Shown: positions 7,766 through 22,643 of the stretch, in pieces
Layout: each line of letters starts with the position of its first letter
How positions within the stretch are numbered: the first letter of the stretch is position 1
From: Candidatus Aenigmatarchaeota archaeon
GTDB lineage: Archaea > Aenigmatarchaeota > Aenigmatarchaeia > CG10238-14 > WAMV01
Assembly: GCA_015522145.1 (NCBI GenBank)
Contig: WAMV01000005.1
Location: 1 to 22,891 of the forward strand
Reading direction: 5' to 3'
DNA length: 22,891 nucleotides
Notes under the pieces: model-generated
The model's database searches: none
Seen by the model: the letters and a program-made list of their open reading frames with translations, nothing else
Told to the model about the DNA's origin: nothing
Made by a program: the position numbers and the translations under genes

Positions 7766-8179
7766 ATGAAGTACGAGCTCTGGGATATTACAACTGCAGA
7801 CGTAGCTTTTATCGCCTATGGCAAGAGTTTAGAGGAATTAATGGCCAACTCAGCCTATGCTATGTTTGATATAATGGTTGATTTGAAGGATGTCGAGCCT
7901 AAGGAAGAAAGAGTTGTAGAGGTTGAAGGAGAAGATTATGAAGAAATGTTGTTCAATTTTTTAAATGAGCTTCTTGTTTTTTACGGTGCTGAAAATCTTA
8001 TTTTTAGTGAGTTTGAGGTTAAAATAGATGGCAACAAACTTAAAGCTGTTGCTAAAGGCGAAGTTTTTGATGAAAATAAACACAAAAGTAAGATAGAGGT
8101 TAAAGCAGCCACCTATCACAAAATGAGAGTTTGGCAAGAAAATGGAATTTGGAAAGCAAGCGTTATTCTTGATATCTAA
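7766..8179 (+). CDS. Archease (RtcB cofactor)
   Basis: TADV...YGKSLEEL, EVKAATYH and C-terminal LDI motifs. Confidence 0.95.
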   Translation: MKYELWDITTADVAFIAYGKSLEELMANSAYAMFDIMVDLKDVEPKEERVVEVEGEDYEEMLFNFLNELLVFYGAENLIFSEFEVKIDGNKLKAVAKGEVFDENKHKSKIEVKAATYHKMRVWQENGIWKASVILDI

Positions 8180-9630
8180 CCTTTAACAACACCTATGGGC
8201 ACAAGCCTGACTATTGGTCTTGCTATTCCTGCCTCTTTACATACTCTAACAACTTCGTCAACATCCTTATATACGCCTGGGGCCTCCTCAGCAACTCCAC
8301 GCCAACTACCAGCTTTTACTAAAATGCCTTTATTTGCTAATTCTTGCACTACTCTCTCACCTCTATATTCTCTTAATGCTCTAGCCCTAGACTTCACTCT
8401 ACCTGCTCCATGAGCTATGCTAGCAAAAGTAATCTGCTCAGATTTATCAGTACCTATTAATATATAGCTTGCTGTTCCCATGCTTCCAGGAATCAAAGCT
8501 GGTTGGCCAAAAGATTTGTAATCTTTAGGTACATCTTTCCATTTTGGACCAAAAGCACGGGTAGCACCTTTCCTGTGCACTAAAACTTTTCTTTTCTTTC
8601 CATCTATTTCATGTTCCTCTAGCTTTGCCATGTTGTGTGTAATGTCGTAAACTATATTCATAGCCATATCCTCTGGCTCCATTTTGAAAACTTGTTTAAA
8701 ACTTTCCCTAACCCAGTGGGTTATCATCTGCCTATTAGCAAATGCAAAATTTGCTGCAGTGTTCATAGCAGCAAAATAATCATAAAATAGCCTGGTACCA
8801 GAAGGTGCAAAAGCTAACTCCCTGTCTGGCAACTTTCTTAACAAATCTCTATACTCCCTTTCCATCATTTGTAAATAATCTGTAGCTACTTGGTGTCCAA
8901 AGCCCCTACTGCCACAATGAATCATAACTGTTACTTGTCCTTCTTTGAATATTCCCATAGCTTTAGCTATTTCAGGTTCAAATATTCTGTCAACTTTTTG
9001 AACCTCTAAGAAATGATTACCTGCTCCCAAAGTTCCTAGTTGAGGTGCACCCCTTTTCATTGCTTTCTCAGAAACTTTGCTAGGATCAGCGTATTGCTCT
9101 TCTGTACCCTTATCTTCTATATGCTCCAAATCCTTCTCCCACCCATAGCCATTCTCTACAGCCCATTTAGCACCATACTTAAGAACTTCCAACAATTGCT
9201 CCCTGCTTAGCTTGACTTTTCCTCCTCTTCCAACACCACTAGGCACATTAACAAAGATAACATCTAACAATTGCTTTAGTTTTGGCCTAACGTCTTTTTC
9301 TTCAAAATTAGTTGTTAATACACGTACGCCACAATTTATGTCAAAACCCACACCACCAGGGCTTATGCCGCCATCATCATAGCTTATGGCTGCCACACCA
9401 CCAATCGGGAAGCCATAGCCGGTATGCATGTCTGGCATGGTAACAATATGCTTTTGCACGCCAGGCAAGCAGGCAACATTTGCTGCTTGCTCTATGGCAG
9501 CGTCTTCCACAGCTTCTAGCAACCTTTCAGATAAAAAGAATCTAGATGGTGTATTCATACAAGGCTTAGTACCTTTAGGTAATTCCCATTCATAATCTCC
9601 AACACGCCTTAGCTTTTCTTTCCACACCAT
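8176..9630 (-). CDS. rtcB: tRNA-splicing/RNA repair ligase RtcB
   Basis: PDMHTGYGFPIGG, GFDINCG, GNHF, HCGSRG, HN, HRKGATRAF and HGAGR all intact; no intein. Confidence 0.98.
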   Translation of the reverse strand: MVWKEKLRRVGDYEWELPKGTKPCMNTPSRFFLSERLLEAVEDAAIEQAANVACLPGVQKHIVTMPDMHTGYGFPIGGVAAISYDDGGISPGGVGFDINCGVRVLTTNFEEKDVRPKLKQLLDVIFVNVPSGVGRGGKVKLSREQLLEVLKYGAKWAVENGYGWEKDLEHIEDKGTEEQYADPSKVSEKAMKRGAPQLGTLGAGNHFLEVQKVDRIFEPEIAKAMGIFKEGQVTVMIHCGSRGFGHQVATDYLQMMEREYRDLLRKLPDRELAFAPSGTRLFYDYFAAMNTAANFAFANRQMITHWVRESFKQVFKMEPEDMAMNIVYDITHNMAKLEEHEIDGKKRKVLVHRKGATRAFGPKWKDVPKDYKSFGQPALIPGSMGTASYILIGTDKSEQITFASIAHGAGRVKSRARALREYRGERVVQELANKGILVKAGSWRGVAEEAPGVYKDVDEVVRVCKEAGIARPIVRLVPIGVVKG

Positions 9631-9718
9631 ATTTGAATTATTTTAGTTAGATTTTATTTAAAACTTAGTTTACTAAATCAAAATCTTTAAATTGTTAAAA
9701 ATTGTTCAACATAATGTA

Positions 9719-10522
9719 ATGAGTATTGAAGAATTGTATATCGTGAACCATTTGTTGAATATAAAATATTTAGAAGATTTGGCCTTGAAAAATAAAGTAC
9801 ATATGAGTTTAATACCACAAGAAGATGATTATTCTATACACTTAGAGAAAAAATTAAACAAAAACTTGAAAAAAATAAAAGAACAACAAGTTTCTGTAAA
9901 AGAAAGGTTTGGAAAGAGTTATAGACCAGAACAAACATCTCACCAAGAATTGAATGCTTATCTACAGCTGTCTACACCTCTAGAAAACATTAATGTAAGG
10001 GATTTAACTAAAATGAGTTTATTATCGTGTTATGTTGCTCAAAGGCTTTATGATGCTATATATCATTATTTGTTTGGAAATTTAGATTTTCAAGAGTATA
10101 GAAGAAATAGAGAAGAAGCGTATGCTCAATTTCAGGAAAATGTTAAGAAAAATCAAATCAACGAAAATTATTTAGACTCATTAACACATTATATAAAAAA
10201 TTCTCTAGAAGAGTTAGATAGAAATTTTGGTCTTGAAGGATTAAATATAGAAATACTTGCTAAACGACTTGCCAAAAATGCTATAGAGTATAGTATTTTA
10301 ATGAAGTGGTCCATACCAAAAACCTTAGAAAGTAAAAGAAACGATGCTCTACATTTTTATACAGATGGGGGTTTGGCTACATATGTTGAAAAACTCAATT
10401 GGCTTCTGGATAAACATTTACCATCAGAAGAAGAAATAATAAAAATATATAAACATTCTCACAACAACAAAGGATTTTTATGTAGGGTTTATTTCGTTTA
10501 TAATTTACTTAGAACAATTTAG
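9719..10522 (+). CDS. Hypothetical helical protein with HEPN-like RxxxxH motif
   Basis: Long AT-rich ORF; ATG 9719 lies ~25 nt after TTTAAA; RNDALH encoded at 10337-10354. Confidence 0.6.
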   Translation: MSIEELYIVNHLLNIKYLEDLALKNKVHMSLIPQEDDYSIHLEKKLNKNLKKIKEQQVSVKERFGKSYRPEQTSHQELNAYLQLSTPLENINVRDLTKMSLLSCYVAQRLYDAIYHYLFGNLDFQEYRRNREEAYAQFQENVKKNQINENYLDSLTHYIKNSLEELDRNFGLEGLNIEILAKRLAKNAIEYSILMKWSIPKTLESKRNDALHFYTDGGLATYVEKLNWLLDKHLPSEEEIIKIYKHSHNNKGFLCRVYFVYNLLRTI

Positions 10523-11067
10523 ATTTCTATTTTTTTACTTTTGTGGTATATAGGAACATAAAATGGATTTTTATCATTTGATCTATTTTGATAGATTGTT
10601 ATATGTATTTTAAACCCACTTTTATATGAAACAATTATTTGAGGTTGAACACCATCCTTATTTTTATAATCTCCTAGTGTGTTTTTTATAAATAATTCTA
10701 TTTTTTCAAAATTTTGTAGTAAATATTCAGCTTGCTCTTTAGTTAAGGAAGTTATATCAATAGGTAGAATACTGAAATCTTGATTGTATTTTAAAGATTC
10801 TAAAGTTTTTTCTATCTTATTATAAAGTTGTTTTATTGGGTCTAATTCGTATCGTGCTTGGTGTTCTAACCTGTATAATTCATTTTCTAAGTTAGCTAAC
10901 TTTTTTTCTACTCTTGGATCCTTTGAGTTTAATTTGTTTGCCTGCTCTACTAATTTTTCTAATTTTCTTTTAATATTCTCTGATAGTATGTTTCTGTGTT
11001 TGTTTAATTCTATAATTTTGTGTTGTATTGCTTGAATGCGTCTATACCTATGGGCTAGTGGTTTCAT
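10519..11067 (-). CDS. Hypothetical protein, N-terminal coiled coil
   Basis: 182-aa ORF with heptad-like K/E/L-rich N-terminal half; no family recognised. Confidence 0.6.
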   Translation of the reverse strand: MKPLAHRYRRIQAIQHKIIELNKHRNILSENIKRKLEKLVEQANKLNSKDPRVEKKLANLENELYRLEHQARYELDPIKQLYNKIEKTLESLKYNQDFSILPIDITSLTKEQAEYLLQNFEKIELFIKNTLGDYKNKDGVQPQIIVSYKSGFKIHITIYQNRSNDKNPFYVPIYHKSKKIEI

Positions 11068-11131
11068 ATATAAAATAATTTTATCTTCAAGTATATTTAT
11101 TCATTAGTAAAAATATAACAGCAGTTTTTAA

Positions 11132-11647
11132 TTAACGTTCATACAAACTTCTAAAAAGCGGAATAAAAGTATCCAGATCATGAATTTCTAGTCTCCCTTC
11201 AGTTTCTTGATATATATACCCATACACTTCTGGATCGTTCAATACTTTATCATGGGTAAGATAAAGTATCTTAACATTTTTTTGCATAACATAAACTATA
11301 AGAGAAGCTATAGTAGCTAAGTCCATTTTATCATCTATCTCAAGAAAATTTTCTTTTAATTTTTTCTGATATAATTTGCTAAGCTCTTTTAAGTACTTGT
11401 TCTTCTCTTCTCTGGGTATATATTCTAAATCTAATTCTGGTAGGTAGATTTTATTGTTTGTCAAATTTAAGTATTCCAATCTATTAAGAGGTGTTATAAA
11501 AACTTTGTTTTGTTTGAATAATTGTGTGGTAATCTTTTTTAGTTTTTTTCTATCTTCTTTATTAATTCTATTTTTTGCTTTTGACTTATCAAAAATATCA
11601 ATTACTATATTGGTATCATACACAACCAAACTATAGCCATTATACAT
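11132..11647 (-). CDS. PIN domain ribonuclease (VapC-like)
   Basis: VVYDTNIV, ITPLNRLEY, DKMDLATIA and YLTHDKVL supply the four acidic PIN residues. Confidence 0.8.
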   Translation of the reverse strand: MYNGYSLVVYDTNIVIDIFDKSKAKNRINKEDRKKLKKITTQLFKQNKVFITPLNRLEYLNLTNNKIYLPELDLEYIPREEKNKYLKELSKLYQKKLKENFLEIDDKMDLATIASLIVYVMQKNVKILYLTHDKVLNDPEVYGYIYQETEGRLEIHDLDTFIPLFRSLYER

Positions 11648-11850: not shown

Positions 11851-12113
11851 GGGGGTGTGTTGGTTGTAGCCCCCCTTCTGTTTGGGTAGCATTCGTCTGA
11901 GCGGCTTACGCCTTGCGCCTCATCGAGGTCTAGGGGCCGTTTCACCTTGCTGCGTATCATAGCTCATATCTAATCCTTGCTCAAGCACAGCAAGTATCGT
12001 TTCTGATCCCCCAGCTGCGCTTTCGCGCAGCTACTTTCGTAGCCCTCTCAGCGGGGGGAGCTTCCTCAGCCTTGCGTTGAAGCAAGGCCGAAGCTACCCA
12101 ACCAACCCACCCC
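11851..12113 (-). ncRNA. rnpB: RNase P RNA (reduced, type M-like)
   Basis: Minus strand shows P1 GGGGUGGGUUGGUU/AACCAACACACCCC, P2 GGGUAGC/GCUACCC, CR-I GAGGAAGCUCCCCCC, CAGAAAC, UGAAAC, GCAAG and CR-V AACAGAAGGGGGGCU. Confidence 0.96.
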
Positions 12114-15413: not shown

Positions 15414-15552
15414 CCTTTTTCTTTTTTTAATTTTTTTAAACAATCCAGCTTCCATTACGGGTCATTTTTATAAGTCCAGATTCGTTAAAATTGCTACTGT
15501 TAAGATAATTAACGCTCGAGTAATAGTTTTGCATTATTTACCATATTTTTAA
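15379..15552 (+). CDS. Possible small membrane protein (TM + ITG motif)
   Basis: From ATG 15379: MKALITFLLLTSLFLFLIFLNNPASITGHF...; overlaps both neighbours. Confidence 0.3.
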   Translation: MKALITFLLLTSLFLFLIFLNNPASITGHFYKSRFVKIATVKIINARVIVLHYLPYF

Positions 15553-16342
15553 CAGATTTTTCACTTCGCCCAAGAAGTCTTCTCAAAAATTTGAAATCAG
15601 AATAAACCAAATCTTTTATTGTCACAATCCCAACTTCGCTAAGCTTCTCAATTTCCTTTTCATTTAAGCCTTTTAGTATGGTTATGGGCTTTACCTTAAA
15701 CTTCTCTATGTAATACTCTATACCCCTTCCTTCTGGAGAGTTCCAACCCATTATATCTATACCTCTACACTTAGCGTATTTTTTAGCGTGAGCGCTGAAT
15801 TTAGAGTTTGAAACTAAAATCGCTTTATCGAAATATATTCTGTTTTTCTCTTTATAGTAAGCTTCTCTCAGATCTTGAAGAGTCGAGTTTAATTGTAACA
15901 GTACATCCATTCCTATCATTGTGTGGAAAGAAATGTGGTGTTTCACTTCAATTAAATAAATCTTATCATCCTTCTTTGCTATTACATCTATTTCATGTTC
16001 GCTACACAAACCCTCTACTATTCTACCATGCTCTGTTTTATAGCCCATCTCCTGAAATAATCTTTGGACAAAAATTTCAAATCCTGGTTTAGGTGGTAGC
16101 AAGCTTAGTGCCTCTCTTAAATCCATAAATCGCCTTATTTCAGGCATATAGTTAGATAATTGGGTATAAACCAATCTCAACAGTTTTTTAGTTGGTATAC
16201 CGTCGTAGACCTTTTTTTCCACTTCGTTAGCCACTATATTAGCTATTCTGTTAGATGCCCCAAGCTTTAAACATGTTTTTACTATTTTTCTTCTATCAAA
16301 AGGCTGTTTGGTTCCATCAGCTTTTGTGACGTAAATAACCAT
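15509..16342 (-). CDS. ATP-cone + Mrr-like PD-(D/E)xK endonuclease + C-terminal helical domain
   Basis: N-terminal VTKADGTKQPFDRRKI (ATP cone); FEIFV...HEIDVIA...LIEVKH nuclease motif. Confidence 0.88.
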   Translation of the reverse strand: MVIYVTKADGTKQPFDRRKIVKTCLKLGASNRIANIVANEVEKKVYDGIPTKKLLRLVYTQLSNYMPEIRRFMDLREALSLLPPKPGFEIFVQRLFQEMGYKTEHGRIVEGLCSEHEIDVIAKKDDKIYLIEVKHHISFHTMIGMDVLLQLNSTLQDLREAYYKEKNRIYFDKAILVSNSKFSAHAKKYAKCRGIDIMGWNSPEGRGIEYYIEKFKVKPITILKGLNEKEIEKLSEVGIVTIKDLVYSDFKFLRRLLGRSEKSVKNMVNNAKLLLER

Positions 16343-16407
16343 AATAATAGATTGATTTTTAAAGTTTATTAAACATTAATGATTAACTTTAGATGTTAAC
16401 AGTAAAC

Positions 16408-16415
16408 TTTAAATA
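16408..16415 (+). promoter_or_regulatory. TATA box for the unknown ncRNA
   Basis: TTTAAATA ~25 nt upstream of 16441; same octamer and similar spacing as at rnpB and the tRNA. Confidence 0.6.
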
Positions 16416-16440
16416 TAGCTAAAATCAAAATTTAATATTG

Positions 16441-16674
16441 TTGGGCATATGGGTAGGATAATCCCATCGAACAATGATGGGATTATCTGGCCATTATAGG
16501 CTCTGGTGCCGGTCCAGGCTAATATGGTGAATGGGCAACCCTCCGAAAGGAGGGTAAATCACCATATTAGCTCCCGGGGCACCACCCTATAATGGTCGAG
16601 GGGTCTGTAAGTAGCGGTGTGGACCGGGCACTTCCGGGTCACTTGCTACGATCAGGCCTCTCTACCCAGCCCAA
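16441..16674 (+). ncRNA. Unidentified highly structured ncRNA (four-way junction)
   Basis: GC-rich island between genes. Terminal helix 16441-56/16662-74 and three arms (16457-87, 16488-598, 16599-661). GAAA tetraloop and G-U wobbles favour the + strand. Confidence 0.8.
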
Positions 16675-16676
16675 AA

Positions 16677-17165
16677 CTATAATTCTTCTTTGATTTTGGA
16701 TTTCAAAGCTTCTTTTTTCATACCAAAATAAGCTTCAAGCTCTTTAGTTAGATAAATAATCTTTGTTCTTCCTTGCTGTTTAGTTTTTATGAGACCTCTC
16801 TCTTCTAATTTTTTTACATAATCATAGACTTTGTTTCCCTGAATCTTAACTAAATCAGACTGTTTGACAGGTTCATTAAGTATTATTAAACCAAGTGTCC
16901 TTGCCATGCCTGGTGATATGTCAGCGTTAGTGGCTATATGCTTTATGTACTCCCTGTATTGTGGCTTAATCCTAATTTCATACCCTAACTTTGTCTCAAC
17001 CAAATCTAAGCTTTTATCCTCTAACTCCTTTTTTAGACTTTGTAAAACAAACAAAGCTTCGTTTTCGTCAGAATTTATAAGCTTAGCTATTTTACTCAAA
17101 CTTATTGGTCTTTCAGATGCAAAAAGTGCTGCCTCGACAACTCTCTTCTTTTCTTCAAAGTTCAT
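16677..17165 (-). CDS. scpB: Segregation and condensation protein B
   Basis: VEAALFASERPIS and RTLGLI...PVKQSDL...LEERGLI...GRTKI motifs; start ATG 17165 (alternative GTG 17183). Confidence 0.92.
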   Translation of the reverse strand: MNFEEKKRVVEAALFASERPISLSKIAKLINSDENEALFVLQSLKKELEDKSLDLVETKLGYEIRIKPQYREYIKHIATNADISPGMARTLGLIILNEPVKQSDLVKIQGNKVYDYVKKLEERGLIKTKQQGRTKIIYLTKELEAYFGMKKEALKSKIKEEL

Positions 17166-17187
17166 AACAAAAATATATTTCACTTCA

Positions 17188-21596: not shown

Positions 21597-22038
21597 AGTG
21601 TTGAGTGAAAAGGAAGTAAAGGAGTTTCATTCACGCTTAAGACTACAGTTTGGTATTGAAGCTAAATTTGATTTTGTATTGTTAAAAAGAAAAAATAGAA
21701 TATTGATTGCTAATAAAGAAATTTTGAAAAATAAAAAATTGTTCAAATTAAACGTGCAAAGAGCAGGTTTATACATCGCAAAAGTTGATGAAAAAAGTAT
21801 TAAGCTAAGTATAGAGGGTTCTCAAATTTTTGGAAAGTATGCTAAGAAAAATATTGTTGAGCTAAACGAAGAAGAGTTCAAAAAATGGATGCAAGGCTTA
21901 GATATTAGAAAATCTTTAGCTAAAGGTGTTTACATAGTAAAATACAAAGAACATTATCTAGGTACAACAACTTCTGATGGCAAAAGACTTATGAATAGAG
22001 TCCCTAAAGAAAGAAGGTTTAGTTTATCAGAGTCGTAG
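21574..22038 (+). CDS. PUA/Nip7-like partner of the m5C methyltransferase
   Basis: TTG start with SD GGAGG at 21560-21564; RAGLYI...KLSIEGSQ...KNIVEL...WMQGLDI resembles the RsmF C-terminal PUA-like region. Confidence 0.75.
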   Translation: MPKLGKYEVLSEKEVKEFHSRLRLQFGIEAKFDFVLLKRKNRILIANKEILKNKKLFKLNVQRAGLYIAKVDEKSIKLSIEGSQIFGKYAKKNIVELNEEEFKKWMQGLDIRKSLAKGVYIVKYKEHYLGTTTSDGKRLMNRVPKERRFSLSES

Positions 22039-22081
22039 GTCTTCATCATTAATCAGCGCTCAGCGGGTATCATCACTTAAT
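22024..22081 (-). ncRNA. Box C/D guide sRNA
   Basis: Minus strand: C GUGAUGA (22076-70), guide UACCCGCUGAGCG, D' CUGA (22056-53), C' AUGAUGA (22049-43), guide AGACCUACGACU, D CUGA (22030-27). All four boxes are consensus with 13- and 12-nt guides. Confidence 0.92.
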
Positions 22082-22083
22082 CA

Positions 22084-22221
22084 TGGGCCCGGCGGGATTC
22101 GAACCCGCGACCTACGGGTTTCTTTGCCATCATTAAATCAGAGCTTTTAAGCTCAGCTGGCTTAAAAGCCTCGGCGGCTTCACATCGCCTCCGCCGCTCT
22201 ACCATGCTGAGCTACGGGCCC
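22084..22221 (-). tRNA. tRNA-Lys(UUU) with two introns (30/31: 22190-22170, 21 nt; 37/38: 22162-22120, 43 nt)
   Basis: Acceptor GGGCCCG/CGGGCCC-A, D arm GCUC/GAGC, T arm GCGGG-UUCGAAU-CCCGC. Removing both BHB introns gives anticodon arm GCGGG-CUUUUAA-CCCGU. No encoded CCA. Confidence 0.92.
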
Positions 22222-22424: not shown

Positions 22425-22460
22425 AAAATTATTTTTCTTATAAGCTGGATTATTTAAAAT

Positions 22461-22643
22461 TTAATAAGTTCTTTTCCCATGTCTTTTAGATTGCCAAGAA
22501 TAGCGCCTGAGTTTTTTAGTTTTACCATAACCACAAGATGCACAATAACCTTTAGAGAAATGATAACTTGTTTTACCACAACGCCTACAACGTATATGCT
22601 TTACACCAATTTTTTTACCAAAACTAGGAGTTCCTTTAACCAT
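22461..22643 (-). CDS. rpl37e: 50S ribosomal protein L37e
   Basis: KGTPSFGK...HIRCRRCG...CASCGYG motifs; SD GGTGA upstream. Confidence 0.97.

Follow-up and report, generated by a model that had tools for sequence, protein, structure and literature searches.

A candidate stand-alone gene for a predicted circular RNA with a four-way junction in an Aenigmatarchaeota-like genome

What is encoded by the strongly folding stretch that separates two minus-strand genes in an Aenigmatarchaeota-like archaeon, and in what form would its product occur in the cell? The window analyzed here is the whole stretch of 22,891 nucleotides that contains this locus. It belongs to an assembly of 323 kb in 19 contigs from hydrothermal vent metagenomes, compared with mostly 0.4-1.2 Mb in relatives, and represents the only genome of its family in our set, the ScpB proteins of relatives being 40-50% identical. 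The named relatives of its ScpB carry the label Aenigmatarchaeota, and a Logan contig encodes a ScpB with 67% identity. We know of no cultured member of the lineage. The original prediction had proposed an independently transcribed RNA of about 234 nt located between an ATP-cone/Mrr nuclease gene and the end of the smc-scpAB operon, and Pfam matches bear out this location:

15509 to 16342, minus strand: divergent neighbor, encoding an ATP-cone, Mrr_cat and AF1548-like protein (Pfam)
16677 to 17183, minus strand: convergent neighbor scpB, the end of smc-scpA-scpB (Pfam)

The predicted architecture was recovered almost entirely by folding and by listing stems. The terminal helix (UUGGGC 16441-16446 with GCCCAA 16669-16674), the AUA bulge (16447-16449) and the next helix (UGGGUAG 16450-16456 with CUACCCA 16662-16668) lie where they had been described; arm A is a perfect 12-bp stem (16457-16468 with 16476-16487), and arm C starts at 16598/16599 with the helix that had been claimed. 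In arm B, the GAAA cap and the segments of 12, 7 and 7 bp were reproduced, whereas the third segment has 14 bp instead of 13. A junction free of unpaired nucleotides, as postulated, is formed in two registers that are one branch-migration step apart: the U16488-G16598 wobble suggested earlier is present among the maximal stems, and the minimum free energy (MFE) register uses G16456-U16488 and G16598-C16662. The element has an MFE of -139.8 kcal/mol (z -12.2; 0 of 200 shuffles equally stable) with ∼78% of its bases paired. At -0.53 kcal/mol per nt, it is the strongest-folding island listed in the 323-kb assembly, the partial 16S rRNA reaching -0.50. The parts of the fold used below are as follows:

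16457 to 16487, plus strand: arm A, a hairpin of 12-13 bp by maximal stems, its loop probably variable
16489 to 16597, plus strand: arm B, a long hairpin with the GAAA tetraloop at 16545-16548
16511 to 16516 (GGUCCA) with 16573 to 16577 (CCCGG), plus strand: mid internal loop of arm B
16531 to 16537 (AUGGGCA) with 16556 to 16558 (AAA), plus strand: distal internal loop of arm B
16598 to 16662, plus strand: arm C, with a weak apex; its positions 16620-16627 complement 16509-16516 of arm B (8 bp)
16450 to 16456, plus strand: inner helix h', paired with 16662-16668 and predicted to become a short loop-capped hairpin after ligation

The asymmetry between the strands agrees with the earlier claim that wobble pairs favor the plus strand. 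G-U pairs account for 7 of 91 pairs at 37°C and 9 of 90 at 60°C on the plus strand, and for 1 of 84 on the minus strand (37°C); the GAAA tetraloop is also on the plus strand. The minus strand has an MFE of -123.3 kcal/mol (z -11.6), the plus strand being more stable by 16.5 kcal/mol. The signals flanking the element on the plus strand are:

16408 to 16415, plus strand: TATA box TTTAAATA, with an A-rich BRE-like stretch upstream
16437 to 16448, plus strand: start predicted from the TATA spacing at A16437 or G16440, and a short 5' leader
16675 to 16700, plus strand: U-rich 3' trailer, a likely terminator, overlapping the stop of the opposite-strand scpB

The box and its spacing had been described as shared with rnpB and a tRNA, and they agree within 2 nt: the distance is 32 nt to G16440, 30 nt for rnpB and 31 nt for the tRNA at 22221. 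The 16S rRNA leader (contig C19) possesses the same TTTAAATA-type promoter with a spacing of 30 nt. When compared with the 16S promoter and the beginning of its leader, the 75 nt around the TATA box reach a score of 42, whereas the best window elsewhere in the genome scores 38.5 (9,974 windows, one every 60 nt, outside the element's own contig). This likeness is limited to the promoter and the first 13 nt.

The element was then compared with known RNA families. The Rfam scan gave no family at gathering score, and the only overlapping match was mir-7131 (E 0.13, 26.7 bits versus a cut-off of 74). Motif checks likewise support the earlier statement that the hallmarks of SRP, RNase P, 5S, tRNA, C/D and H/ACA RNAs are absent. 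Archaeal SRP RNA (RF01857) was rejected in both linear and permuted form (no helix 8 CAGG..GNRA..AGCA motif, no model match), as was 5S rRNA (RF00001) with or without expansion (no loop C/loop E motifs, no three-way junction, no model match). The P4 motif GAGGAA of RNase P RNA is absent, and the rnpB gene of this genome lies at 11855-12110. Neither a T arm nor a cloverleaf indicates a tRNA or tRNA half, the relaxed ARAGORN output being uninformative noise. For box C/D sRNAs, the plus strand contains no RUGAUGA or CUGA box; for box H/ACA sRNAs, the only ACA sits in loop A and there is no unpaired hinge. The catalytic core sequences of hairpin, hammerhead and other Rfam ribozymes were not found in the element. 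An antisense or guide role was rejected (no match elsewhere in the genome exceeds 12 nt, shuffles giving 12-14, and rRNA matches are 8-10 nt), and so was a coding RNA (no rolling-circle frame, longest stop-free stretch of 38 codons). Regarding omega/reRNA, retron and other RT-associated RNAs, no TnpB or RT was found in the window or in the incomplete assembly.

The 16S-like promoter also bears on a further explanation, in which the element is a diverged or circularly permuted housekeeping RNA missing from the assembly, such as 5S rRNA, SRP RNA or a pre-rRNA spacer. The assembly has no 5S, SRP RNA or SRP54 matches, whereas these are present in 38 of 40, 39 of 40 and 5 of 5 relatives, respectively, and a permuted SRP RNA is described for Thermoproteus in the available part of PMC4731332. 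However, profiles built from 25 5S rRNAs, 15 SRP RNAs and 27 23S leaders of relatives miss the element in linear or doubled form, the 23S-leader profile thereby rejecting a pre-rRNA leader or spacer, and the key motifs are absent. The genuine SRP RNA is probably present in the assembly as a 3' tip truncated by a contig end (C1:10743-10764, minus strand; weak match, E 34). Since the assembly is small and incomplete, with no 23S rRNA, a break inside 16S and this SRP tip at a contig end, the absence of 5S and SRP RNAs is to be expected, and we regard a housekeeping origin as very improbable.

Several other RNAs of the host and its relatives were observed during these comparisons. The 23S leaders across the order (L088-L091, L137-L160) contain a conserved cluster of C/D-like boxes, with the recurring guide-like words GGACACC and CGAACTGTC; they also share a hairpin, likewise conserved, that lies between TGCAAC and GGGTGAAG. 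One locus (L092, G023:C9) holds a second 23S gene with a bacterial-looking promoter region, possibly a contamination of the G023 bin. Single long GC-rich hairpins lie outside genes in the host (C10:19263-19401, C12:20699-20803, C3:9398-9572) and in relatives (L110:19830-19939, L133:894-992), possibly as H/ACA-type guides. The RNase P-like RNA of another relative (L099:8874-9155, G038) has an apparently reduced and unusual specificity domain.

Contigs from three studies (X2, X3, X6) cover the RNA locus. The X3 contig shows 97 differences in an ungapped alignment to 15442-16888. The X6 contig comes from a mat metagenome produced by another study; its alignment to 16440-16732, which extends into scpB, contains 11 substitutions and 3 gaps, two of them deletions in the arm A loop (16472, 16475). 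In relatives such as L005, L007 and L010, scpB and the ATP-cone gene are directly adjacent, therefore the RNA gene must have been inserted or relocated in the host. This adjacency, together with the folding of the minus strand, could speak for a mobile or DNA-level element (a MITE or an integrated viroid-like sequence) or for a cis element in the minus-strand scpB-nuclease transcript. Such an origin is improbable in our assessment. The element is present in a single copy in the incomplete assembly, with no target-site duplication at its ends among the repeats listed; the assembly, as noted, contains no TnpB or RT, and there is no convincing match in the viral, phage and plasmid collections. 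Moreover, the promoter, the G-U bias and the GAAA loop all belong to the plus strand, and the element keeps its position in contigs that have diverged by about 7%.

Covarying homologs, which a new RNA class would be expected to have, were found neither in 370 genomes of the class nor in the collections listed here; only the near-identical contigs were recovered. BLAST gave one weak match, to the promoter only, among 40 relatives, and 10 matches of 19-25 nt, none with a similar fold, in the 370 class genomes, where a gapped motif had 5 matches versus 3 for the control. A covariance model (R1) had no match in 117 genomes of the order and 150 of the phylum (overlapping sets); it was built on one sequence, and distant homologs can escape it. 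The same model found no such RNA at 29 scpB loci of relatives, nor was one found at 29 ATP-cone/Mrr loci, where the best 200-nt window reaches -20.2 versus -47.0 at the element (70°C). Thus, a fixed link between the RNA and the nuclease gene within the order is not supported. A GTDB pattern scan returned at least 119 stretches, with a best score of 9.6 bits among the 80 screened; viral collections gave 28 loci in one scan and none in four others (best 8.5 bits). BLAST yielded two 29-nt matches in a phage collection and none in a plasmid collection, and 13 distant loci reached via ScpB in JGI metagenomes were all devoid of the RNA. A fold survey of ∼590 of 650 kb of G038 and nine stretches of G005 contained no similar orphan RNA, its sole R1 match (E 0.11) lying inside 16S rRNA with non-native pairing. 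The accessible parts of the literature mention neither this RNA nor stand-alone circular RNA genes of Aenigmatarchaeota, and supplementary circRNA tables could hold unnamed cases. As no homolog was found, the fold stands without covariation support.

The original reading as a plus-strand, uncatalogued RNA with its own promoter is therefore upheld by the fold, the promoter, the strand asymmetry, the single copy and the failed family tests, whereas the term class is not, given that no covarying homolog was found. That this locus is a real and so far uncatalogued functional RNA gene we consider highly probable.

The closing helix with its AUA bulge had been taken for an ordinary stem; it has the geometry of an intron-type bulge-helix-bulge (BHB). 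The motif scan identified a 5' strand with a 4-bp central helix, followed by the 3-nt bulge AUA and a 7-8 bp inner helix. The central helix pairs GGGC 16443-16446 with GCCC 16669-16672, and the two bulges are AUA 16447-16449 and AAA 16673-16675. The orientation is the canonical one of an excised intron on the plus strand, and the motif lies within the MFE fold. According to the BHB rule, cleavage occurs after the second base of each bulge, which gives:

16448/16449, plus strand: predicted 5' cut between U16448 and A16449 (BHB rule)
16669 to 16677, plus strand: 3' strand of the BHB, with GCCC 16669-16672, the bulge AAA, imperfect outer pairing and a predicted cut between A16674 and A16675

In the host assembly, the outer helix comprises just one U-A pair if the bulge is taken as 3 nt, or 3 bp if it is taken as 2 nt. 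The MFE fold closes the 3' bulge by pairing UU with the bulge A's, and 1.8 kcal/mol (37°C) or 1.3 kcal/mol (70°C) would be needed to open it. The X2 and X3 contigs have the four-A form with no gap listed, and thus the same imperfect outer helix. The X6 contig has an extra A behind 16672, which produces a strict 3-nt bulge and a 3-bp outer helix, at a contig depth of 2.8 where such a lone difference could be an error. A relative (G027) possesses a genuine pre-16S BHB whose outer helix is slipped and imperfect in the same manner, and A-rich bulges are common to the BHB of the element and the pre-16S motifs of relatives.

The rarity of this geometry was estimated with shuffles and other nulls, all designed after the features had been seen: among 200,000 shuffles of the flanks, 1,166 pass the BHB test that was applied to the element, and of the shuffles that form an outer helix at all, only 2.8% show the 3/0 bulge geometry. 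A combined scan for a TATA box, a BHB and a strong fold was applied to 1.72 Mb, comprising the host assembly and loci of relatives, among them 15 SRP and 25 5S loci. Four of the 987 candidates pass, and the three besides the element are located within 23S loci or in a stretch that looks like coding DNA; none of the 15 SRP and 25 5S loci pass. The BHB geometry makes a 226-nt circle the likely product instead of a 234-nt linear RNA.

The assembly encodes the enzymes that such processing would require. EndA (189 aa) is encoded on contig C1 (C1:5638-6204); the one EndA unit found resembles the homotetrameric type and is probably strict. The ligase and its neighbor are located in the window, physically unlinked to the RNA gene:

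8176 to 9630, minus strand: RtcB RNA ligase (NCBIfam RtcB-family matches)
7766 to 8179, plus strand: neighbor of rtcB matching PRK00407 (labelled hypothetical), which we take to be a probable archease

According to the available part of PMC6379350, homotetrameric EndA is inefficient on relaxed motifs. In several intron-containing tRNA genes of the host (C3:2975, C7:79567, C13:77), the scan found no strict BHB. The single-unit EndA must therefore be able to cleave relaxed sites, within tRNAs at least.

Other features of the host were noted around these genes. Between rtcB and rnpB, the window contains three low-GC ORFs with no convincing Pfam family (9692-10522, 10519-11067 and 11132-11647, together 9692-11647), possibly acquired DNA. 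The intron-containing tRNA at 22084-22221, missed by ARAGORN at default settings, is directly followed by an element resembling a C/D-box sRNA (22024-22080, minus strand). On contig C12 (minus strand), two halves of one tRNA (22454-22520 and 23093-23152) are separated by ∼570 nt and carry complementary extensions of 13 nt. The intervening DNA contains an open frame of 212 codons on that strand; the locus represents either a split tRNA or a tRNA interrupted by a long intron with an ORF.

The chief competing reading is a stable linear ncRNA of about 235-240 nt, with a bulged terminal stem that only protects the ends and resembles a BHB by chance. The UU pairing of the MFE fold, the imperfect outer helix in three assemblies and the probably strict, single-unit EndA are all in its favor, as is the observation that in relatives, too, SRP and 5S RNAs begin at the promoter and open with a closing stem. 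However, the BHB geometry is rare in the nulls, none of these SRP and 5S loci pass the same scan, the X6 allele forms a strict BHB, and the complement in arm B described below is most easily used after removal of the leader. We hold the linear form to be rather unlikely. Circularization via the BHB is the best reading, and we predict with reasonable, though limited, confidence that the RNA is circular.

The circular reading can be outlined in four steps. A strong stable-RNA promoter would give a transcript of ∼250 nt from about 16437-16440. Its ends would fold into the intron-type BHB, the geometry of which is present in the sequence, and EndA would cut both bulges. RtcB would then join A16674 to A16449 by the known pathway into an exonuclease-proof, four-armed ring of 226 nt. 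Finally, the loss of the leader would free GCCCA in a new 7-nt loop, where it may pair with the complementary UGGGC of arm B, either between molecules or within one molecule, arm B then bending back at the mid loop. The product and its complement are:

16449 to 16674, plus strand: predicted mature circular RNA of 226 nt with a perfect four-way junction
16532 to 16536, plus strand: UGGGC in arm B, the exact complement of GCCCA 16669-16673 and a copy of the leader strand

In the circular form, the fold has -126.1 kcal/mol at 37°C, and modeling at 70 and 85°C retains all four arms. In the precursor, GCCCA 16669-16673 is paired with the leader, and the sequence suggests a kissing contact with UGGGC that would become available only after processing. 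The duplex would contribute -10.0 kcal/mol at 37°C and -4.9 kcal/mol at 70°C. An equally strong loop-loop helix arises in 12 of 20,000 shuffles of unpaired bases, and UGGGC appears in another loop in 63 of 20,000. If the RNA is circular, we consider the chances for and against this contact to be even. With distances to the junction of 7 and 42 nt for the two loops, kissing within one molecule would require a sharp bend.

The second complementarity, between 16509-16516 of arm B and 16620-16627 of arm C, is equaled in between 0 and 12 of 300 nulls, the count varying with the choice of null. Before loop penalties, this pairing would yield a net of only about -5 kcal/mol (37°C) and -1 kcal/mol (70°C). 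Both loop strands begin at a distance of 22 nt from the junction, an arrangement that recalls the hairpin ribozyme, in which, as described in part in PMC3672286, internal loops on adjacent arms of a natural four-way junction dock. A catalytic or switching RNA of this kind is nevertheless very improbable: there is no Rfam ribozyme match, the loop A and loop B sequences given in the available part of PMC3672286 are not seen in the element, the gain from pairing is small, and the strand directions appear poorly suited to arms lying side by side. In comparison with that ribozyme, the element is much larger, encoded in DNA and equipped with its own promoter.

Since both contacts would be awkward within one molecule, pairing between rings is plausible. 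A self-dimer by secondary structure brings little gain. The most likely job of the predicted ring would be that of a heat-stable structural scaffold, binding protein or forming multimers. We slightly favor the view that the locus is a stand-alone gene for a circular RNA with such a scaffold role, the function being judged from structure. It can also be speculated that splicing acts as an assembly switch, the leader masking GCCCA until EndA and RtcB have acted and the rings then assembling into a defined multimer or cage; this remains an unlikely extension of the model. Equally speculative is the corollary that the arm B-arm C complement would serve as a second contact, after a first kiss between the ligation loop and UGGGC. 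Self-assembling RNAs with inter-loop pairing, such as phi29 pRNA and OLE, ROOL and GOLLD, are linear and of bacterial or phage origin. The element shares with them long helices with complementary loops that may pair between molecules, a comparison made via Rfam only; unlike them, it is archaeal and predicted to be circular, and it has no Rfam match.

The closest known parallel is the permuted and circular SRP RNA of Thermoproteus tenax, for which the available part of PMC4731332 describes a short leader and trailer forming a BHB that is cut by EndA, with RtcB as the proposed ligase. Both are stand-alone genes with a leader-trailer BHB, and the functional loop created by ligation in T. tenax resembles the predicted ligation loop here. 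In contrast to the element, which lacks SRP motifs even when permuted and for which circularity is a prediction, the T. tenax RNA keeps the SRP helices, binds SRP19 and SRP54 and comes from a host with a relaxed heterotetrameric EndA (PMC4731332, same part). The element also shares motif geometry and enzymes with excised BHB introns and circular pre-16S/23S rRNAs. These are, in the portions available of PMC7714728 and PMC12558985, by-products or intermediates of a tRNA, rRNA or mRNA leader, whereas the flanking 'exons' of the element comprise only 9-12 nt plus a short trailer, and the circle itself would be the product. The circular box C/D sRNAs of Thermococcales, which are hyperthermophilic archaea, are likewise small stable RNA circles, as is predicted here; however, they are ∼60-70 nt long, carry C/D boxes and depend on the ATP-dependent ligase Rnl (PMC9014305, accessible part), whereas the predicted circle has 226 nt and no C or D box.

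The fold of the element is absent from Rfam, and the route of its biogenesis is already known. The archaeal BHB circles described in the portions of these sources available to us are tRNA introns, rRNA precursors, one mRNA-leader intron and one rescued SRP RNA. If the reading proposed here is true, the splicing machinery would also produce RNAs with a function of their own, and a genome well under 1 Mb would keep a separate gene solely for a 226-nt ring.
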